From a virus: DNA of 34,962 bases. Both the position numbers and the translations under genes were made by a program. A model generated the notes under the pieces. The model was given only the letters and a program-made list of their open reading frames with translations. It was not told where the DNA came from and did not search any database. Location: IMG/VR virus record IMGVR_UViG_3300012348_000038; one strand, written 5' to 3'. Shown here piece by piece: positions 3,710 through 34,691 of the stretch. Position 1 is the first letter of the stretch, and every line of letters begins with the position of its first letter.

Positions 3710-3884
3710 TGATTACAATAACTTCTTAGTAAGGCTGACACCTAAGAGCAGAGCATTGCTTGATATTGCCAGCAAAGAATTAGAGATGCCTAGGGCGCAC
3801 ATTATTAATAACGCCTTAAAGTCTTATTTAAATAAATACAATGATGGTAGTTTAAACGAGCGTATAAACAGGTTGGCTAAATGA
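3699..3884 (+). CDS. Ribbon-helix-helix (CopG/Arc-like) DNA-binding protein
   Basis: FLVRLTPKSRALLDIASKELEMPRAHIINNALKSYL fits the beta-strand plus two-helix RHH pattern. SD AGGA is present. Confidence 0.55.
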   Translation: MAASDYNNFLVRLTPKSRALLDIASKELEMPRAHIINNALKSYLNKYNDGSLNERINRLAK

Positions 3885-4231
3885 TATTGACCCTGCCGTA
3901 CCCACCATCGGTTAATACTTACTGGAGAGCAAATGGCAAACGACGATTCTTATCAAAAGCTGGTGTGGAGTTTAAACAAGCTGTTCAGGAGTATGTTATT
4001 GATAATTCAATTCCTAAGTTTGGCAGTGTTCGCCTTCGCATGGATGTGGTTATTCGCCCTCGTAGTCGTCGCATATTTGATATTGACAATCTTCTCAAAG
4101 CTATCCTCGACTCGTTGATGGATGCTGGTGTCTATGATGATGATAGCCAGGTAGATGATTTACGCATAACGCGTGGCGACCCATGTAAAGATGGCGCTTG
4201 TATTGTAGTAATAGAGGAAATAAATGGCTGA
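3881..4231 (+). CDS. rusA: RusA-family Holliday junction resolvase
   Basis: LPYPPSVNTYWR ... DIDNLLKAILDSLMDAGVYDDDSQV matches the classic RusA signature. ATGA overlap with the upstream gene. Confidence 0.85.
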   Translation: MILTLPYPPSVNTYWRANGKRRFLSKAGVEFKQAVQEYVIDNSIPKFGSVRLRMDVVIRPRSRRIFDIDNLLKAILDSLMDAGVYDDDSQVDDLRITRGDPCKDGACIVVIEEING

Positions 4232-4685
4232 GACAGAAGATACGCGTAAGATTAAACGCATACCGTCATTAAAGAACTACGGTGGTGTCCGCACTATACA
4301 GAAAACATTAGAACGCTCTGCAACGCTAGAGGCTAACCGTGAGGCCGTGGCTTATGCACTGTTAACCATGGCTAACACAAACCTTACTGACATAATGAGT
4401 TGGGATGAACATGGGACAATTAAAGTTAAGGCGTCGAAGGACATACCGGAACACGCACTTCAGGCAATTAAAAGCATTAAATCGAACACTAGGTATGATA
4501 AGGATGGGAACGCGACGACAACATTGGATATTGAACTATTCGATAAAATTGGAGTATTGCGGTTATTGGCTAAAGCGTCAGGGTTATTGGACCAAGCCCA
4601 AGAAAGTGACAAGCCTTCAGTCATTGGTGTAAACATTGTAGCTCCAGACCCTATAGACGCAGAGGTAGTAGATGGCGAAAGTTAA
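4224..4685 (+). CDS. terS: Terminase small subunit
   Basis: Lies immediately upstream of, and overlapping, the large terminase. The C-terminal ...LFDKIGVLRLLAKASGLL pattern is typical of P27-type small terminases. Confidence 0.7.
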   Translation: MAETEDTRKIKRIPSLKNYGGVRTIQKTLERSATLEANREAVAYALLTMANTNLTDIMSWDEHGTIKVKASKDIPEHALQAIKSIKSNTRYDKDGNATTTLDIELFDKIGVLRLLAKASGLLDQAQESDKPSVIGVNIVAPDPIDAEVVDGES

Positions 4686-6228
4686 AGAACAAAGTGGTAA
4701 ACAGGTATCTTTTGATGGCTTAAACCTAAACTTCAGTAAAAGCCCAGAGGTATACAAGTTTTTGCAAGACGATTCCTTTGTGCAAGGCTTGATGGGGCCT
4801 GTAGGTAGTGGCAAGTCATACGCTTGCTGTGCAAAGATATTCATTAAAGCGCTACAGCAGAAGCCATCACCTGTGGATAACATTCGATACACGCGTTTTG
4901 CCGTAGTGCGAAACAGTTATCCTATGTTAAAGACAACTACCATTAAAACATGGCTTGACTTGTTCCCAGAATCCACGTTTGGGCCATTGCTTTGGACTCC
5001 GCCTATTACTCACCACATCCGTTTGCCTGCAAAAGGTGAGGCTGCTGGTGTGGATTGCGAAGTTATCTTCTTAGCGCTAGACCAACCTAAAGATGTGCGT
5101 AAGTTGCTGTCATTAGAGTTGACTGGTGCGTGGGTAAACGAGGCGCGTGAGCTACCAAAGGCTGTAATTGATGGGCTTACACACAGGGTAGGCCGTTATC
5201 CTACCAAACGTGATGGTGGTGCTACATGGCATGGCGTATTTATGGACACCAACCCTATGGATGACGACCATTGGTGGCACAGAGTAGCTGAGAAAGAGAA
5301 GGTAACTGGCGCATACGCTTGGAAGTTCTTTAATCAGCCCGGTGGCGTGATAGAAGTAGACCCATCTGACTTGCCTGACAATCCTGAAGCCAATGACCAC
5401 ATCTTTGCGTCTGGTCGCTGGTGGAAGATTAACCCAAAAGCAGAGAACTTAAACAATCTGCCTGCTGGCTACTATCCACAGATGCTTGGTGGTAAGAACT
5501 TAGACTGGATTCGCTGTTATGCAGAGGGTAAGTATACCTATGTGCAAGAAGGTCGCCCTGTATGGCCTGAATATAACGACCAAATGATGTCTGCTACCGT
5601 AGAATACGACGATTCACAGCCAATACAGATAGGATTGGACTTTGGTTTGACGCCTGCAGCAGTGATTGGACAGCGTTTATCTAATGGTAGATGGGTTGTA
5701 TTGCATGAAATAGTCACAGAAGACATGGGGCTAGAGCGTTTTGGTCAGCAATTGCTTGCAGAATTGAACGCTAGATACCAAAAAGCACAAGTAATGATGT
5801 GGGGCGACCCTGCTGGTATGCAACGAGATGCCATTTATGAGGTCACAGCCTTTGATTATCTGCGAACATTAGGGCTAAGAGCGCAACCAACGCACTCAAA
5901 TGACTTTAAAGTACGTCGTGAAGGCGCTGCTGCCCCAATGCAACGACTGATTGATGGCAAGCCGGGCTTGATTGTAGACACTTCATGCAAGATGTTGCGT
6001 AAATCACTAGCTGGTGGGTACCATTTCAAGCGTGTTTCTGTAGGTGCAGGGCAAGAACGCTTCCGTGATGCGCCAAACAAGAACGAACACTCACACGTTG
6101 GCGACGCATTTGGCTATTTAATGCTAGGTGGCGGTGAGCATAAGCGTATGACACGTAATCCATTAGCCTCTAGTGGCCCTATATTTGCAAGAACTGTTAT
6201 GAGCGACTTCGATGTATTTAAGTATTAA
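4672..6228 (+). CDS. terL: Terminase large subunit
   Basis: Walker A motif GPVGSGKSYA, later acidic and nuclease-type motifs, 518 aa, and its position in the genome. Confidence 0.9.
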   Translation: MAKVKEQSGKQVSFDGLNLNFSKSPEVYKFLQDDSFVQGLMGPVGSGKSYACCAKIFIKALQQKPSPVDNIRYTRFAVVRNSYPMLKTTTIKTWLDLFPESTFGPLLWTPPITHHIRLPAKGEAAGVDCEVIFLALDQPKDVRKLLSLELTGAWVNEARELPKAVIDGLTHRVGRYPTKRDGGATWHGVFMDTNPMDDDHWWHRVAEKEKVTGAYAWKFFNQPGGVIEVDPSDLPDNPEANDHIFASGRWWKINPKAENLNNLPAGYYPQMLGGKNLDWIRCYAEGKYTYVQEGRPVWPEYNDQMMSATVEYDDSQPIQIGLDFGLTPAAVIGQRLSNGRWVVLHEIVTEDMGLERFGQQLLAELNARYQKAQVMMWGDPAGMQRDAIYEVTAFDYLRTLGLRAQPTHSNDFKVRREGAAAPMQRLIDGKPGLIVDTSCKMLRKSLAGGYHFKRVSVGAGQERFRDAPNKNEHSHVGDAFGYLMLGGGEHKRMTRNPLASSGPIFARTVMSDFDVFKY

Positions 6229-26871: not shown

Positions 26872-27355
26872 AGAACTATTTAAATTATTGCGCCACCACG
26901 AGGGTGTTCGATACAAACCGTATCAATGCCCTGCTAAGTTGTGGACAATTGGTGTTGGTAGTGTATTATACCCAGAGCAAGCTAAGATACCATCAAGTAT
27001 AGAAGGCATGGCTAGGCGTAAAGCGTGGCCAGTTAAGCCTGAAGACAATCGTAAGTGGAGCGAAGAAGAAGTTGACAAGTTACTGGCTAAGGATGTCGCC
27101 CGATTTGAACGAGGGCTTGAACGTTATTTACCTATACGACTTTCACAGAATGAATACGATGCTATTCTTAGCTTCTGCTTTAATCTTGGTCTTGGTACAT
27201 TTCAGCGGTCAACCCTCCGTCAGGCGCTTTTGCGTGGGGATAAAGAGACGGCTATACAAAGTCTACTTAAGTATAACAAGGCAGGTGGCAAAGTGCTAAA
27301 AGGTTTAGATAACAGACGTAAAGATGAGGCCGCGTTGTTTCGCAGAGAACAATGA
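26858..27355 (+). CDS. Endolysin, GH24 (T4/lambda-type lysozyme)
   Basis: LLRHHEGVRYKPYQCPAKLWTIGVGS carries the catalytic Glu motif. The track start at 26819 is TTG. GTG 26858 is a shorter alternative, so the start is uncertain. Confidence 0.85.
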   Translation: MKASKELFKLLRHHEGVRYKPYQCPAKLWTIGVGSVLYPEQAKIPSSIEGMARRKAWPVKPEDNRKWSEEEVDKLLAKDVARFERGLERYLPIRLSQNEYDAILSFCFNLGLGTFQRSTLRQALLRGDKETAIQSLLKYNKAGGKVLKGLDNRRKDEAALFRREQ

Positions 27356-28113
27356 CAGTACATTTGGTGTTGCCTGACGTTCAAGCCAAGGATGGGAATG
27401 ACTTTACTTTCCTAAAATGTCTTGGAAATTTTATTGTAGAAAAACAGCCCGACGTTATTGTGTGCATAGGAGACTTTGCAGACATGGAAAGTTTAAGCAC
27501 GTATGACAGGGGAATGAAGTCGTTTGAGGGGCGTAGGTACACCAAGGATTTATTTGCAGCCAGAGACGCAATGGATGCCCTTCTTACCCCATTGTTTCGC
27601 TACAATAAGACAGCAAAGCACAACAAACACAAGCAATATAAACCTAGGATGGTTCTCACTCTAGGCAATCACGAGAATAGAATTAACAGAGCTATCAATG
27701 AGGATAGCAAACTTGAAGGGCTGATGTCTACAGATGACTTACCGTATCAAGACTGGGAAGTTATACCATTCCTAGATGTCATCGTTATTGATGGCATTGC
27801 TTATAGTCACTACTTTACTTCTGGCGTCATGGGCAGACCTATCACTACTGCTCAAGCATTGCTTACGAAGAAGCACATGAGTTGTTTTGCTGGCCACCAA
27901 CAAGGCAGACAGATTGCTTACGGCAAACGGGCAGACGGAACTGAGATGACCTCGATAATATGTGGGTCTTGCTACGAGCATGATGAAGATTATCTAGGCG
28001 CTCAAGGCAATCAGCATTACCGTGGCTTCTATGTGTTGCATGATGTCAAGGATGGTTCGTTCGATGAGATGGCAGTATCAATTAAGTTCCTTAAAGAAAG
28101 GTATAACTACTGA
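27352..28113 (+). CDS. Calcineurin-like metallophosphoesterase
   Basis: Motifs IGDFAD, LGNHENR, SHY and AGHQQG appear in canonical order. Confidence 0.75.
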   Translation: MTVHLVLPDVQAKDGNDFTFLKCLGNFIVEKQPDVIVCIGDFADMESLSTYDRGMKSFEGRRYTKDLFAARDAMDALLTPLFRYNKTAKHNKHKQYKPRMVLTLGNHENRINRAINEDSKLEGLMSTDDLPYQDWEVIPFLDVIVIDGIAYSHYFTSGVMGRPITTAQALLTKKHMSCFAGHQQGRQIAYGKRADGTEMTSIICGSCYEHDEDYLGAQGNQHYRGFYVLHDVKDGSFDEMAVSIKFLKERYNY

Positions 28114-28298
28114 TGGCCTACCAACAAGATGATGACTCAATGGTTGACGTTTGCAATAGACTGCTTGGCTCAGAGATAGAGGAAATAGAAGTCGATGCTG
28201 ATGAGCAAACTGTTTACATACACACCAGCACCGGGATGATTAAGATTAACGGTGAAGACTTATCTATGTGGGTAGAGTGCGAACGATACGCAAGCTAG
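28113..28298 (+). CDS. Hypothetical acidic protein (61 aa), last gene of the plus block
   Basis: ORF-track ORF with ATGA-type coupling. Its stop overlaps the stop of the convergent minus-strand gene. Confidence 0.5.
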   Translation: MAYQQDDDSMVDVCNRLLGSEIEEIEVDADEQTVYIHTSTGMIKINGEDLSMWVECERYAS

Positions 28299-28519
28299 GG
28301 TAACTCACCGCCATTAATATCTATATGGCCTTCATCCCAATTCAATGGGCAGCCAGTCCAGCCACACTCTTTAGTTGATGCAAGGCTCTTGCCACACACA
28401 TCACAGATAGGGTCTTTCTTTTTCTTGCCCCATATCAAATCGTAGTTATCTTCGTATTGCTTGTTATTCTTGCGTGACAGTATTGCATCGCCAGTAATTT
28501 CATTCGTTGTTGTTACCAT
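28295..28519 (-). CDS. Small Cys-containing (zinc-ribbon-like) protein, 74 aa
   Basis: I prefer the ATG at 28519 (GGAG SD) over the track start at 28588. Motif CDVCGKSLASTKECGWTGC. Confidence 0.5.
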   Translation of the reverse strand: MVTTTNEITGDAILSRKNNKQYEDNYDLIWGKKKKDPICDVCGKSLASTKECGWTGCPLNWDEGHIDINGGELP

Positions 28520-28622
28520 AATATCTCCTACAAATTCATGGTTTTCTCTATTGTTTGTCTTTAATATTAAGCAGACTATTACATACAAGCAATCTTGCTT
28601 TGAACAGATTAAGGACTATATC

Positions 28623-28694
28623 ATGTGGACATCACCATCAGCTACAGAAATGCGCTTTGGCTTTGAAGTAACTCTCTATGTTATGAATCGCTAG
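28623..28694 (+). CDS. pqqA: PqqA-like peptide (pyrroloquinoline quinone precursor), 23 aa
   Basis: Translates to MWTSPSATEMRFGFEVTLYVMNR. It has the same length and spacing as bacterial PqqA as I recall them (for example [23 protein letters not shown] and [23 protein letters not shown]), including the Glu-x3-Tyr pair that becomes PQQ. SD AAGGA lies 7 nt upstream, and a hairpin follows directly after the stop. Confidence 0.85.
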   Translation: MWTSPSATEMRFGFEVTLYVMNR

Positions 28695-28710
28695 TAACAT
28701 ATAAGTTACT
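28693..28710 (+). promoter_or_regulatory. Perfect inverted repeat AGTAAC-atataa-GTTACT overlapping the pqqA stop codon
   Basis: 6-bp stem with a 6-nt loop. It contains the first of three GTAACATA copies (28694, 28728, 28796). Confidence 0.5.
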
Positions 28711-28746
28711 ATGCACGTAATGAACAAGTAACATATTTGTTATATA

Positions 28747-28777
28747 GGATGGCGACTGCTAACCCGGTTGCCATTCC
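28747..28777. other. Bulged 7-bp hairpin GGATGGC ... GCCATTCC with a central AACCCGGTT palindrome
   Basis: Seen in the sequence. No T-run follows on either strand. Confidence 0.35.
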
Positions 28778-28811
28778 TAAAGCAAACGCTTCTTTGTAAC
28801 ATAATATGTAT

Positions 28812-29012
28812 TCAATCGTGTACATGTTTAAACTTACATCCCTCACATCGGACATCTATTATATCTTGTTTTGAGTATTGGCAATCCCTAGTAAATATGT
28901 AAGGCCATGATGTCTTGCCGTCGCTATGATACACAGTATCGTGCTGGCATCTGTCAGGAACTACGTCGCTGTGGCATCCATTCATATTATTTCCCTGATA
29001 ATTTTTTTGCAT
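28812..29012 (-). CDS. Cys/His-rich small protein (66 aa)
   Basis: ORF-track ORF with the pattern CHSD...C.HD...C...CEGCKFKH, suggesting metal binding. Confidence 0.5.
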   Translation of the reverse strand: MQKNYQGNNMNGCHSDVVPDRCQHDTVYHSDGKTSWPYIFTRDCQYSKQDIIDVRCEGCKFKHVHD

Positions 29013-29069: not shown

Positions 29070-29381
29070 TCATGTGTTCTTATCCTTTAATGCTTGTTCA
29101 ATAGCACGGGCATAATCTAATTCGGGTTCTAGTGCATCAGCGCCCCATATTTTCCATGTAATGTTTTGTATTTCATTATCCGTTAATTTTATAAAAAATG
29201 TTGTGCTTTTAATAGCAACCTTAAATCCTTCATAAAAAGATTCAACTGCTAAATGTTTATCTACGGCATTAGCAAACTGTCCTTCATATCTTTTATCTGC
29301 TTCATTGCACATCAACTTAAATTGATTAAGCGTAAGATTGTGATATTCTTTTGCGTGTTTTTTTAATTCAATATCACTCAT
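29070..29381 (-). CDS. Hypothetical protein (103 aa)
   Basis: ORF-track ORF. The C-terminal LTDNEIQNI...ARAIEQALKDKN motif is shared with the upstream neighbour. Confidence 0.55.
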   Translation of the reverse strand: MSDIELKKHAKEYHNLTLNQFKLMCNEADKRYEGQFANAVDKHLAVESFYEGFKVAIKSTTFFIKLTDNEIQNITWKIWGADALEPELDYARAIEQALKDKNT

Positions 29382-29781
29382 AATTTTTATCCTTCAGCAT
29401 ATTTTCAATGCCATTGTAAAAATCTATCCAATTTAATATGCCTCTATTTTTTTCTTCACATTTTTCACCAATAGCACGAACCATGTCATTGGTTAAACCT
29501 TTCCATTCTTTAAACCTTAACAAGTCAATCTCTTTGCGTAAGTATTCAATATAGTCAACACATTCTGCTTTTGACATAGCATCAAAATCACCTAAAGATA
29601 CTGGTTGTTCTAGTGCTTCTTTGCAAGCATTGATTGGTTTAATTAAAAAAGTATCTTTGTGCATATTTAATTCATTTGGACTTACTCCAAATGCAATAAG
29701 CAAACTGCATACTTGATTAATATAATTATCGGCTTGTTCCATTTCTTCAATCGCCATCTTTAATGCTTCGTCTTTAGTCAT
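29374..29781 (-). CDS. Hypothetical protein (135 aa)
   Basis: ORF-track ORF. C-terminal LTNDMVRAIG...IENMLKDKN. Confidence 0.55.
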   Translation of the reverse strand: MTKDEALKMAIEEMEQADNYINQVCSLLIAFGVSPNELNMHKDTFLIKPINACKEALEQPVSLGDFDAMSKAECVDYIEYLRKEIDLLRFKEWKGLTNDMVRAIGEKCEEKNRGILNWIDFYNGIENMLKDKNYE

Positions 29782-30782: not shown

Positions 30783-31052
30783 CTAGAACGGTATATCCGA
30801 TGCTATCTCGTCAATCGCTTGCTTCTGATAACCGTTAGCCTTAGCGCCTTCTTTAGCGATAGATACTACTGGCTCCGGTTCTGCTAGTTGGCACCAGCCA
30901 TCCCAACCCATTGGGAACAATTCAATCTTTGCTGCTAGGCCACCAGTCTTGGTCTCCATAACAACGCCAACCTTTGTCCAGCGTGTTTTCTTCTCGCCAT
31001 TCTTGTCTTCGTATTCGCCATTCTTTGCTACTAAGTTGTATTTAACTGCCAT
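30783..31052 (-). CDS. Miniature SSB-like protein with a C-terminal ...SDIPF tail
   Basis: 89 aa. YEDKNGEKKTRWTKVGVV is OB-like. The terminal DIPF equals the bacterial SSB C-terminal tip. Lies adjacent to the exonuclease and annealase. Confidence 0.5.
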   Translation of the reverse strand: MAVKYNLVAKNGEYEDKNGEKKTRWTKVGVVMETKTGGLAAKIELFPMGWDGWCQLAEPEPVVSIAKEGAKANGYQKQAIDEIASDIPF

Positions 31053-31677
31053 TTTTATTTCCTTTTAATCGTTGAATTGTTGTTTCTACTTGGTCGTTGA
31101 ACTCTACTGCCTTGCTTTCAACCTCTTTAATATATTCATCATCCCGGTAAACGCGTTTGATAAACAATTGTAAATCCAGTGGGAACTCAGGGCAGTATGA
31201 TACAAAGTCTACCCACTTGGCCCCACTGCATGCCATTTGAAACTGCATCTGTGGCATGTATTTTGTTGGCGCTCTGTCTTCTAGCATTGTCTTAGCGTGT
31301 GTCGTAGCTTTAGGGCATTTGATTTCAATTAACCCTAGCTCGTCATCTTCTTCTACTATGCCATCAGGACTAGCACCACAGAACGGCAACGTTGGATGTT
31401 GCATGAACGCTTCTTGCCTAACAAACACATTGCGCTCCACCTCATACCATGCACGAGCAAATGGTTCTAACTCGATACCGTTGGCCATGTATTGATTGGT
31501 GTAGCCTTCTTCACGCTTGTTATTTAAACGCTCACAGACGAGTTGCATCCTGTAGTCGGCACGACTAGCTGCCTCACCAGTTTTAATCGTTGCCATGACG
31601 TCTGCAATGCGACTGGCAGTGATTTTACCAAGACGTAGCGCATGCCATTCTTCCGTTCCTTGAACTATCTCAGTCAT
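31042..31677 (-). CDS. YqaJ/lambda-Exo-type recombination exonuclease
   Basis: QGTEEWHALRLGKITASRIADVMA plus the later D...E.K nuclease motif (LIEIKCP). Confidence 0.85.
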   Translation of the reverse strand: MTEIVQGTEEWHALRLGKITASRIADVMATIKTGEAASRADYRMQLVCERLNNKREEGYTNQYMANGIELEPFARAWYEVERNVFVRQEAFMQHPTLPFCGASPDGIVEEDDELGLIEIKCPKATTHAKTMLEDRAPTKYMPQMQFQMACSGAKWVDFVSYCPEFPLDLQLFIKRVYRDDEYIKEVESKAVEFNDQVETTIQRLKGNKNGS

Positions 31678-32168: not shown

Positions 32169-32378
32169 CTATTCTCCCAAGCTGTATTGGGCAACTCGAC
32201 ATGACTCGCCAAACTGGTTTGATACCTTAACAAGTTCAACATTTATTTTGCGCCCTTTCTTCTTCAAGATATGCACACATGATGCTAGTCTATAAATTCC
32301 CAGCTCTGACCACGCTTGTAATGGCGTGATGAATTGCCGAGTGCTTAAGTAATTCTCTAAACGTTCAGGCTGGCTCAT
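32169..32378 (-). CDS. Small winged-HTH protein
   Basis: ITPLQAWSELGIYRLASCVHILKKKGRKI...Y.L matches the phage HTH_39-type pattern. Confidence 0.6.
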   Translation of the reverse strand: MSQPERLENYLSTRQFITPLQAWSELGIYRLASCVHILKKKGRKINVELVKVSNQFGESCRVAQYSLGE

Positions 32379-32977
32379 GCTTTGCTCCCTAGTTTAGCTT
32401 TCATGCTATCTTTGGTTGCAATTACAACGGCCTGCGCTTCTTTATTCTTACCGCATGCTGACAACGATGCTGTGAAATACTCTTGCAACTCGCTCATGGT
32501 TGTAGCTGTTTTAATCTTGTCGACTAATGGGGTAGTGTCAAACTCTACTTGCGGTAGGTCTTCGCCAGCAAAGATGTATAAACCAATACCAAAGCAAGCA
32601 ATACATTTAGCTAGGCATCGCATTGTAGCGTCACTAATCTTACGTGCATCCGGGTTGACAATGGCAGCATTACGATTATCCATGACTGGCAATTGCATAC
32701 GCATAGTCTTGCCAAGCGCTGTTACATTGCAGAACACCATCATTGTGTCGTTATAAACGCGTGGCTCAGGGAACTCCCATACAGCCATTGGGTCTTGCAA
32801 TAGTAGCTGGTCTACAGCCCATGTCCATGATAGATAGGTAAGCTGGCCCTTCTTCTCTGTGTATTTATTAACGTCAATCTCGCGTAATACTTTGTATGTT
32901 GCAGTCGTTTCCATATCGTTCTCCTGTTGTTGTCTTAATTCATCCATTACTTCTGCTTGAAATTGTTGCTCGCTCAT
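32375..32977 (-). CDS. Rad52/Sak-like single-strand annealing protein
   Basis: QLTYLSWTWAVDQLLLQDPMAVWEF ... CFGIGLYIFAGEDLP fits the DUF1071/Sak pattern. Confidence 0.8.
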   Translation of the reverse strand: MSEQQFQAEVMDELRQQQENDMETTATYKVLREIDVNKYTEKKGQLTYLSWTWAVDQLLLQDPMAVWEFPEPRVYNDTMMVFCNVTALGKTMRMQLPVMDNRNAAIVNPDARKISDATMRCLAKCIACFGIGLYIFAGEDLPQVEFDTTPLVDKIKTATTMSELQEYFTASLSACGKNKEAQAVVIATKDSMKAKLGSKA

Positions 32978-33464: not shown

Positions 33465-33548
33465 AGCCATTAGTCAAAGCCCTGCACCTACTCGGTGTCC
33501 TGCAACCAGCCTAACCCGCTGGAGGGTTTTGTCTAGTGGCTTTTTTTT
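33465..33548 (+). ncRNA. 77-nt three-way-junction RNA ending in a U8 intrinsic terminator (sRNA or leader attenuator)
   Basis: The 19-position outer stem pairs 33465-33483 with 33523-33541 (16 Watson-Crick pairs, 2 G-U, 1 mismatch). Inner hairpins are GCACC-tactc-GGTGT and CCAGC-ctaaccc-GCTGG. T8 follows at 33541-33548. The element lies between the promoter and the SD/ATG of the replication gene. Confidence 0.55.
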
Positions 33549-33559
33549 GGAGTAAACAA

Positions 33560-34270
33560 ATGCACTATTACCAATTTAATATTGGTGACTATTATAGCCA
33601 CACAAAACATTTATCGCCCGTCGAGGATATTTGTTATCGCAGAGCATTAGATTATTATTACCTACATGAAGCGCCATTGACAAGCGATATTGCAAAATTA
33701 GCTAGACTTTTAATGGTGACTGAATATCAGATAGAGCTGATGACCGTGCTTGATGAATTCTTTACAGTAGCCACAGAAGGATTTATAAACCCTAGGGCTG
33801 ACAAAGAAATACAGCAATATCAATCATTTAGCGATGCTGGTAAACGTGGGGCGGCTAAGAGGTGGTCAAAGGGTGGTGATAGCGAGGCTATAGGGGGGCT
33901 ATCAGGGGGTGTATCAAAGGCTAATGCTAAACAAGAACCACTAACCATTAAACATAAACCATTAAACAAATACATACCACCAATTCCTGCGGAATTATTA
34001 TCTGAATATCAGGCTATCAGAAAAAGTAAAAAGGCGGCACCACTTACAGAGCGTATGTTTAATGCAATATGCAAGCAAGCTGTAGTGGCAGGCATTACAC
34101 CAGAGCAGGCAATTATTCTATGCTGTGAAAAAGGCTGGACAGGATTTAATGCTGAATGGGTAAAAGATAAGTCAGTCAAACCAATGAAAGGCTATGGCTT
34201 TGTATCTGACGAACAATTTAATGATTGGCTAGAGTCCACACCTACACAAGAAAGGATTGCAAATGAATGA
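33560..34270 (+). CDS. DUF1376 (YdaU)-family replication-associated protein
   Basis: MHYYQFNIGDYYSHTKHLSPVEDICYRRALDYYYLHEAPL is the DUF1376 signature. I prefer the ATG at 33560 (GGAG SD) over the track start at 33536, which lies in the terminator T-run. Confidence 0.8.
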   Translation: MHYYQFNIGDYYSHTKHLSPVEDICYRRALDYYYLHEAPLTSDIAKLARLLMVTEYQIELMTVLDEFFTVATEGFINPRADKEIQQYQSFSDAGKRGAAKRWSKGGDSEAIGGLSGGVSKANAKQEPLTIKHKPLNKYIPPIPAELLSEYQAIRKSKKAAPLTERMFNAICKQAVVAGITPEQAIILCCEKGWTGFNAEWVKDKSVKPMKGYGFVSDEQFNDWLESTPTQERIANE

Positions 34271-34691
34271 TTCAAATAAAAAACAGTTTTGGGGCATGTT
34301 AAATGTGGCCATGGAACTTACCAACAAACCGCCTTTAACTAAAGAAGCCATACTTACTTGGTGGAACTTGCTTTGCAAATATGATTACAGTGTAGTCGAG
34401 AAAGCTGTAAGCCAATGGGTTGATAGTTCAAGCAAGCCGCCTACCCCACATGATATTGCTGGCCTATGCAGGCCTAAAGAGCCTATCTATCAAGCGTTGC
34501 CGGCGCCAGTGAGTTATTCCGAGAATAAAGCTCAAGCTGATAAACTCGCTTTGTTTATACACGAAAAGATTAAACCAAAGACAGATTACCATGCTTGGGC
34601 CAGACGAATCTTAAAGAATCCGCAGAACTTCCCGGAGTCATCAGTGCAGGCAGCCAAAGAGGTGTTAGGTGATAACTACGCGTTGGCATAA
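34263..34691 (+). CDS. Replication accessory protein (helicase-loader-like, tentative)
   Basis: The ATG at 34263 has an AAGGA SD. ILTWWNLLCKYDYSVVEKAVSQWVDSSSKPPTPHDI resembles G39P-type loader motifs. Confidence 0.4.
   Translation: MNDSNKKQFWGMLNVAMELTNKPPLTKEAILTWWNLLCKYDYSVVEKAVSQWVDSSSKPPTPHDIAGLCRPKEPIYQALPAPVSYSENKAQADKLALFIHEKIKPKTDYHAWARRILKNPQNFPESSVQAAKEVLGDNYALA

Follow-up and report, generated by a model that had tools for sequence, protein, structure and literature searches.

A 23-codon orphan pqqA gene in a MEP301-like phage, probably supplying PQQ precursor to methylotroph hosts

The window, meaning the whole stretch of 34,962 nucleotides analysed here (IMG/VR virus record IMGVR_UViG_3300012348_000038), carries on its plus strand a 23-codon open reading frame (ORF) for PqqA, the precursor peptide of pyrroloquinoline quinone (PQQ). 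The gene lies antisense inside the end of a leftward early operon that contains Sak, YqaJ and small genes of no assigned function, and is preceded by its own ribosome-binding site:

28623-28694, plus strand: pqqA, 23 codons and a TAG stop, product MWTSPSATEMRFGFEVTLYVMNR, identified by translation, family models and conservation
28611-28615, plus strand: Shine-Dalgarno (SD) sequence AAGGA, 7 nt ahead of the ATG, identified from the sequence

The window peptide matched the PqqA model PF08042 with E=9.6e-9 and 35.5 bits (gathering score 21.1), and the NCBIfam equivalog TIGR02107 with E=9.5e-8 and 31.7 bits (cutoff 20). Since 79 ORFs of at least 20 aa were counted in 5.5 kb, corresponding to roughly 500 in the whole window, the match is still significant after multiple-testing correction (E about 5e-6). 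Glu15 and Tyr19, spaced four residues apart, are the PQQ-forming residues, and both marks of the PqqA family, a score above the curated model cutoffs and a small peptide with a Glu-X-X-X-Tyr pair, are present. The GC content of the ORF (41.7%) equals that of the window (41.6%), and a search of the PDB sequence set returned no PqqA-like chain. A tblastn search of the whole window with Pfam-verified PqqB, PqqC, PqqD and PqqE from a marine Methylophilaceae metagenome-assembled genome (MAG; locus L166) returned no match, and the same probes, as a positive control, recovered 10 bacterial loci. Linkage to pqqBCDE, which also serves to recognise pqqA, is thus absent from the window; it is not strictly defining in Methylophilaceae, because 70 of 80 copies are unlinked there too.

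A sequence-only reading of the window had described a 23-codon PqqA with the conserved positions of the family, its own SD sequence and no pqqB, C, D or E in the genome, and had named PF08042 and TIGR02107 as the models to search. That description is confirmed: the translation, both family models and Glu15/Tyr19 agree, AAGGA stands 7 nt (CTATATC) ahead of the ATG, and the tblastn search was empty with its control positive. Separately, an in-frame TTG at 28461 opens a 77-aa ORF (28461-28694, plus strand) that contains pqqA and overlaps the minus-strand gene at 28295-28519; this TTG-started form is spurious, and an ORF caller could report it instead of the 23-codon gene.

The distribution of the gene among isolate phages was surveyed with the 23-mer as a tblastn query on 50,697 phage records. 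Full-length matches at 70-87% identity were found in Venkman, MEP301, P19250A (an LD28 phage), MEP401 and MEP402, four Melnitz genomes and one spring-water podovirus genome, and the peptides of these isolates all scored above the Pfam threshold (37-43 bits). In all of these records pqqA is unnamed, with either nothing annotated or a 'hypothetical protein' on the opposite strand. The Melnitz gene (L005 2995-3069; MKWTKPVAQEMRFGFEVTMYIMTR) has the SD sequence AAGGAGG and lies directly upstream of tRNA-Leu. 'Hypothetical proteins' are annotated opposite the conserved pqqA ORF at L005 2961-3056 (Melnitz1EXVC043M_151) and at L004 2067-2195 (UOF77531.1), and both calls are probably spurious.

The cultured OM43 and LD28 phages named in PMC10580990 are those found here to carry pqqA; since the whole of that phage set has the ORF, the gene is apparently universal in cultured methylophages. 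Melnitz is a T4-like, 141-kb member of Kyanoviridae and MEP402 belongs to Zobellviridae, and the window large terminase (4672-6228) is 79.7% identical to TerL of the OM43 phage MEP301 and matches only MEP301 among the Methylophilales phages; taken together, this isolate taxonomy and the TerL match place pqqA in no fewer than three to four unrelated phage types. The window is accordingly assigned to a MEP301-like phage of predicted OM43-type Methylophilaceae hosts, the host being inferred from the similarity to MEP301. Megablast of the 2-kb pqqA region against the phage collection gave no match, and the placement needed the TerL tblastn.

An Acinetobacter-type PqqA query against the same 50,697 records found no further true phage. 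Two contigs labelled 'Acinetobacter phage MD-2021a' (CAKLQF020000010.1 and CAKLQH020000055.1, the latter L167) were rejected as phage pqqA, as they hold fur, ppk and pqqABCDE and look like mislabelled bacterial chromosome. On these searches, pqqA among deposited phage genomes appears confined to Methylophilales phages.

A peptide-pattern scan of IMG/VR found at least 586 contigs with pqqA; IMG/VR totals are lower bounds, and the counts of viral loci are drawn from the matches listed. Near pqqA in the first 80 IMG/VR loci, the families encountered were YqaJ exonuclease (39), SSB (33) and Sak (27), with a replication initiator, a DnaB-type helicase, NinB, a DNA polymerase exonuclease subunit and endolysin also found near viral copies, and large-ORF clusters comprising TerL, portal, capsid, RNR and polymerases. 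The neighbour families of viral and bacterial pqqA are disjoint, the only common 'families' being spurious ORFs that overlap pqqA itself. No pqqB-E was present in the flanks of any sampled viral locus, and no methanol dehydrogenase was seen in the flanks of about 200 sampled loci; one methanol dehydrogenase motif match, in L209, had no Pfam match and was rejected. Where both neighbours were called, pqqA was antisense to both in 42 of 77 viral loci, so the antisense, moron-like placement pointed out in the sequence-only reading is real and recurrent, and the survey of related phages that it had proposed found the ORF intact in relatives and in all other cultured methylophages.

Single-linkage clustering of the viral loci by common proteins gave a single component, to which overlapping-frame ORFs, duplicate contigs and mosaic genes contribute, and was discarded. 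Among the 'bacterial' loci, only L106 (uncultured bacterium Loclat_bin-07551, a 12.4-kb contig) has phage families beside pqqA (YqaJ at 5025-5690), and it probably derives from a phage, either as a contig wrongly placed in a MAG or as a prophage. Four IMG/VR loci (L059 around 3569, minus strand, among them) have in the vicinity of pqqA a recurring ORF of 685 aa, whose sequence on visual inspection suggests the fusion of a membrane sensor with a nucleotide cyclase.

Bacterial homologues were taken from 185,579 species genomes, among which the best 80 matches were all from Methylophilaceae (Methylotenera, Methylophilus, Ca. Methylopumilus and marine MAGs). Bacterial and viral PqqA peptides are near-identical, as in the bacterial example MWTSPSATEMRFGFEVTMYVMNK compared with ...TLYVMNR in the window. 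The pqqBCDE genes adjoin 10 of the 80 bacterial copies, and the other 70 are dispersed orphans, some in tandem pairs. In four marine Methylophilaceae/Nitrosomonadales MAGs (L098, L125, L159 and L163, around 5800-6072), two different pqqA copies stand in tandem about 130 nt apart, for example ...MYVCNK and then ...MYVMNK, followed by an adhesin-E-like gene, glyA, nrdR and ribD; the arrangement, located apart from pqqBCDE, seems to be a conserved marine one.

The PQQ pathway is present in the predicted host group. A complete pqqABCDE set was verified in a marine Methylophilaceae MAG, and Methylophilaceae are reported to have 3-12 pqqA copies with a single pqqBCDEFG, PQQ synthesis belonging to the family core genome (PMC4109929). 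In Table S4 of Salcher et al. 2019 (PMC6794327), whose genome set includes the OM43 strains KB13, MBRS-H7 and HTCC2181, the last being the host of MEP301, pqqB-G are present in every visible column, in agreement with the host check proposed by the sequence-only reading. In the visible part of the same table, pqqA is marked absent ('not necessary') in nearly all Methylophilaceae genomes (PMC6794327); this is an annotation gap, as the scan performed here finds multiple copies per genome. In the pathway, PqqA is the precursor, PqqE with its chaperone PqqD forms the Glu-Tyr bond, PqqB hydroxylates and PqqC oxidises, and the expression of particular pqqA copies tracks the rate of PQQ synthesis (PMC9851590). 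For Methylovorus MP688, which has five pqqA copies, the passage of PMC11317620 that cites Ge et al. 2015 gives PqqA availability as rate-determining for PQQ synthesis.

Selection on the viral peptide was assessed from alignments of the viral loci. For most loci the only DNA alignable with the window was the ORF with its SD sequence (about 66-80 nt), and mean pairwise nucleotide identity among viral loci was 0.86 in the ORF vs 0.28-0.34 in the flanks. In 74 unique viral sequences, the proportions of synonymous and nonsynonymous differences were pS 0.49 and pN 0.05, and the ratio of nonsynonymous to synonymous substitution rates (dN/dS) was 0.065, dN and dN/dS being biased low because the loci were retrieved by peptide similarity. 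W2, P5, A7, R11, F12, G13, F14, E15, T17, Y19, V20 and N22 were invariant in these 74 sequences. In a second viral sample, picked only on the 9-residue core EMRFGFEVT, the ORF was intact in 115 of 115, with the start, Tyr19 and the stop position conserved though they lie outside the search pattern. The gene is syntenic in relatives in which flank identity has fallen to about 70-89%. At the level of sequence, these comparisons demonstrate purifying selection on the viral PqqA peptide.

The 3' end of the window gene differs from that of the closest relative, L024, whose flanking proteins are 91-98% identical to those of the window, and two adjoining segments were delimited by alignment:

28671-28707, plus strand: 37-nt patch, absent from L024, that supplies T17-R23, the TAG stop and 13 nt of foreign flank
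28708-28731, plus strand: relic of a displaced pqqA 3' end, ACTATGCACGTAATGAACAAGTAA (ACT ATG CAC GTA ATG AAC AAG TAA), out of frame, reading TMHVMNK and a stop

Between the window and L024, the first 48 nt of the ORF are identical at 47 of 48 positions and the DNA beyond 28731 at 126 of 129, and the present 3' end at 16 of 24. The relic is identical to the intact L024 3' end at 22 of 24 positions, with the Tyr19 codon changed from TAC to CAC (His). By this alignment, window pqqA appears chimeric, a patch of the 'LR' type (L18/R23) having replaced the resident 'MK' 3' end and shifted the former end downstream. The patch agrees at 32 of 37 nt with an allele of the L015 type, post-stop hairpin included. 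Linkage of residues 18 and 23 in viral copies gave 13 LR, 3 LK, 4 MR and 176 MK; the LR allele was thus found in 13 of 196 viral copies and in 0 of 91 bacterial copies sampled, and L024 carries the common MK form. The LR loci are the window, L007, L010, L014, L015, L021, L025, L033, L037, L038, L039, L217 and L258.

The relic is unique among 293 copies examined, and its exact junction was found in no IMG/VR contig. The patch and relic are read as a recombination footprint, a strain-mixture assembly artefact being less likely, and a genuine relic would mean that recombination carries pqqA alleles from phage to phage. It would also mean that the only untranslated pqqA copy has lost Tyr19, which fits selection on the peptide.

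Candidate expression signals around the gene were obtained from sequence, folding and alignment:

28555-28582, plus strand: weak promoter-like elements, TTGTCT and TATTAC separated by 16 nt, with TAATAT also at 28562-28567, as candidates only
28587-28600, plus strand: short hairpin in the 5' untranslated region, AAGCA-ATCT-TGCTT, a candidate 5' stabiliser
28690-28714, plus strand: weak AU-rich hairpin over the stop codon, formed across the insertion junction (fold, alignment)
28728-28743, plus strand: small hairpin GUAACA-UAUU-UGUUAU, which in L024 directly follows the pqqA stop
28745-28779, no strand assigned: strong 14-bp hairpin downstream of pqqA (fold), kept in L024

Upstream of the gene, A-G-G at -12 to -10 were the only high-information positions common to viral and bacterial copies. 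Hairpins of differing sequence lie at about -35 to -20 in viral copies and reach at least 6 bp in 61% of them vs 32+-5% of shuffles, with elements related to the window 5' hairpin in L007, L034, L041 and L004. A -10-like box was present in 83% of viral upstream regions vs about 70% of controls, a slight enrichment.

Downstream, the 116 nt after the stop (28685-28800) fold with z = -4.83 and 0 of 200 shuffles as good, mainly from the hairpin at 28745-28779, which is kept in L024 with the paired change A28749G and T28774C. Mean z of the downstream fold was -3.2 for viral and -3.9 for bacterial copies, with upstream controls at about -1, and terminator-like sites followed pqqA in 32 of 76 viral and 73 of 86 bacterial copies. 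The 28745-28779 hairpin is not a canonical terminator because it has no U-run; it is a possible transcript end, stabiliser or barrier for the antisense operon. The hairpin that the sequence-only reading had placed at the stop does exist at 28690-28714, but it is weak and AU-rich and is a by-product of the 37-nt insertion junction.

The remaining features of the neighbourhood were assigned as follows:

28295-28519, minus strand: hypothetical protein of 74 aa, ATG at 28519, SD sequence AGGAGA, last gene of the leftward operon
28709-28855, minus strand: possible 48-aa ORF, which would narrow the gap around pqqA
28812-29012, minus strand: Cys-rich hypothetical protein of 66 aa, leftward early operon
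31042-31677: YqaJ exonuclease, leftward early operon
32375-32977: Sak annealing protein, leftward early operon
33536-34270: primosomal or initiator protein, in the rightward replication module opposite the early operon
34257-34691: helicase loader, rightward replication module
3881-4231: RusA, rightward replication module
27352-28113, plus strand: calcineurin-like metallophosphoesterase, end of the rightward late block

With the genes at 28295-28519 and 28812-29012 (both minus strand) as neighbours, pqqA occupies the 292-bp gap (28520-28811) in a minus-strand operon that had been described earlier, but the possible ORF at 28709-28855 (minus strand) would shorten it. The 74-aa flanking protein has no family match and a homologue in L024 at 97%. 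An indel lies in the early operon beside pqqA: two small early genes of the window (29070-29781, minus strand; 103 and 135 aa, no family match) are without counterpart in L024, the rest of the L024 fragment being 89% identical. No integrase was found among the early-region ORFs tested, which are not every ORF of the window, and Rfam gave no known RNA in the window. A calcineurin-like metallophosphoesterase stands near pqqA in the window and in 9 viral loci (including L007 5164-5904), and P19250A has a phosphodiesterase-annotated gene at the same position as the MEP301-like metallophosphoesterase; metallophosphoesterases have been given as an auxiliary metabolic gene (AMG) of OM43 phages (PMC10580990).

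It is judged quite probable that the window pqqA is a functional phage gene whose product is a normal substrate topping up the precursor for host PQQ enzymes, that is, an AMG. Three findings expected of an AMG are at hand: the genome is that of a bona fide phage (TerL, structural and early modules, and the ORF in plaque-isolated phages), the gene has host-derived homologues in a pathway that the host has (Methylophilaceae homologues, MAG pqqABCDE and Table S4), and it is kept by selection in phages, the estimate carrying an ascertainment bias. The AMG role had been put forward in the sequence-only reading, and it has withstood what could be computed, with the family models matched, the pathway found in the host group and the ORF intact in relatives.

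Expression of the phage gene, processing of its product by host enzymes and a benefit to the phage would follow this course. The 23-aa peptide would be expressed from a small separate transcription unit of the phage (SD sequence, 5' hairpin, ORF and downstream hairpins), antisense to the early operon; host PqqD would bind the peptide, host PqqE would cross-link Glu15 to Tyr19, and host PqqF/G, PqqB and PqqC would complete PQQ. The cofactor would then load periplasmic XoxF methanol dehydrogenase and power the cell. As one PqqA would be consumed per PQQ, an extra phage copy could keep or raise PQQ output, and with it methanol-derived energy, in a long infection; the latent period of MEP401 and MEP402 is 17-20 h (PMC10580990). 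Because hosts keep 3-12 pqqA copies, host precursor supply may be limiting.

Several points weigh against this reading. Expression of the phage gene is inferred from sequence signals, and a consensus scan of the window found no sigma-70 promoter and no canonical intrinsic terminator at pqqA; the scan is uninformative on expression, because genuine bacterial pqqA copies likewise have no consensus-promoter enrichment. The antisense position of pqqA to the operon could suppress its own expression, and compatibility of the L18/R23 allele of the window with host PqqD/E is assumed. The low dN and dN/dS are in part a product of how the loci were retrieved. PQQ is a prosthetic group and is unconsumed in catalysis, so that a gain within one infection cycle is not obvious, and the window phage, unlike the Baikal virus considered below, has no methanol dehydrogenase; a benefit therefore requires ongoing PQQ loss or new apo-enzyme, which is an assumption. 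PQQ is a supplement of OM43 culture media, so some strains may also take it up.

A role at the level of DNA, in which the conserved 69-nt segment would be a homology patch for recombination or integration with host pqqA loci or other phages and its coding incidental, is improbable. Recombination is evident in the window copy from the 37-nt patch and displaced relic, pqqA lies inside the phage recombination module (Sak, YqaJ), and the hosts provide 3-12 dispersed targets (PMC4109929). The variation is mostly synonymous, however (pS 0.49 vs pN 0.05), conservation of start, frame, stop and SD sequence fits selection on the peptide and not on DNA identity, and site-specific recombination would be poorly served by a pairwise nucleotide identity of about 86%. 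The early-region ORFs tested include no integrase, and the T4-like Melnitz carries pqqA too.

Still less credit is given to the decoy offered as an alternative in the sequence-only reading, a competitive inhibitor that would bind PqqD/PqqE without productive conversion and so lower PQQ or tie up the radical-SAM machinery. The conserved N-terminal region and core make PqqD/E binding plausible, and the L18/R23 allele occurs only in viral copies, but a decoy would not have to retain both cross-linking residues, whereas all intact viral copies have an invariant E15 and Y19, and the majority of viral peptides match host peptides exactly or almost exactly, so this alternative is disfavoured. Shutting down the energy metabolism of an obligate methylotroph over a latent period of 17-20 h would also hurt the phage.

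A PQQ-independent job for the peptide, in signalling, metal or lanthanide handling, or regulation of methylotrophy genes, is considered very unlikely to the same degree. The orphan pqqA of M. extorquens is regulated separately from pqqBCDE, with a role in lanthanide uptake speculated (PMC11317620), and a bacterial PqqA family is reported to be co-expressed with defence systems (PMC11118758); against this, no PqqA has been shown to do such a job, conservation follows exactly the pattern of a PQQ precursor, and the phage distribution tracks PQQ-dependent methylotroph hosts. A neutral passenger or artefact (recent capture of host DNA, contig contamination or a chance ORF) might be suspected from a tiny ORF in an intergenic gap, with an insertion junction in no IMG/VR contig and a relic that may be local mis-assembly of two strain variants, but for the ORF itself it is effectively refuted by model E-values of about 1e-8, by the ORF in plaque-purified, fully sequenced isolates of several phage types, by synteny in relatives with flanks diverged to about 70-89% identity, and by strong purifying selection and a GC content equal to that of the window.

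The reading of phage pqqA as an AMG has precedents, and the novelty claimed for it in the sequence-only reading was overstated. Coutinho et al. 2020 (Microbiome) reported PqqA in the Lake Baikal viral population VP_266, a predicted Methylophilaceae virus, and read it as an AMG boosting PQQ for methanol dehydrogenase (PMC7678222), and a 2026 survey names viral pqqA, pqqE and pqqD (PMC13188868). VP_266, compared here by description only, is like the window in having pqqA in a virus of a predicted Methylophilaceae host with an AMG reading, and unlike it in being a freshwater metagenomic contig with methanol dehydrogenase and peptide deformylase; that paper has no report of pqqA in cultured methylophages or of its breadth in IMG/VR. 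No mention of pqqA is made in the publications on MEP301, Melnitz and MEP401/402, and a full-text literature search combining pqqA with phage, Methylophilales or auxiliary metabolic genes gave no further reports. The presence of pqqA in every cultured methylophage, its breadth across at least 586 uncultivated viral genomes and its recombinational allele replacement appear unreported in the searchable literature.

Among known systems, the closest is the orphan pqqA of Methylophilaceae themselves (Methylotenera, Methylophilus, Methylovorus, Ca. Methylopumilus, OM43), which has a near-identical peptide, a strong SD sequence, 23 codons and a structured 3' flank and lies mostly off pqqBCDE; the window copy differs in its place among phage recombination and replication genes, its wholly different neighbour families and its L18/R23 residues. 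Cyanophage psbA is the classical phage AMG, replacing a rapidly depleted host component, and encodes a working protein subunit. Both are host-derived genes that keep, or in the case of pqqA would keep, host energy metabolism running during infection, but PqqA is a substrate destroyed for one cofactor molecule, so that the phage would give feedstock to host enzymes and no enzyme. Like morons, pqqA is a small gene with its own SD sequence and flanking hairpins in an intergenic gap, in opposite orientation in 42 of 77 loci and with flanks unalignable between phages; unlike them, its promoter and terminator elements are at most candidates, and it is not sporadic but apparently universal in the phages of its host group.

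Whether the wider picture holds is rated about even: that pqqA is a near-universal signature gene of Methylophilaceae phages, acquired independently by unrelated myo-, podo- and siphovirus-type lineages and still swapped by recombination, and that it is the smallest known AMG, supplying a consumable cofactor precursor. If so, the supply of PqqA would be the bottleneck when infected methylotrophs, marine or freshwater, draw energy from methanol, and the L18/R23 allele, seen only in viruses, might be an adaptation to quicker or preferred processing. At 23 codons, pqqA lies below normal gene-calling thresholds and is missed in host and phage annotation alike; since it is invisible to standard gene callers and unnamed in isolate-phage records, AMG surveys systematically miss it. 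As a marker the gene is simple and specific, and it can serve to predict which uncultured viruses have Methylophilaceae as hosts; phage-host pairs are already in culture (MEP301 with HTCC2181; Venkman and Melnitz with H5P1). Methanol in lakes and coastal seas has major consumers in OM43 and related Methylophilaceae, for which the PQQ-dependent XoxF is the sole methanol dehydrogenase; if their PQQ precursor is supplemented by phages, viral infection would directly tune C1 oxidation, and PqqA supply would be exposed as the limiting step of cofactor synthesis.

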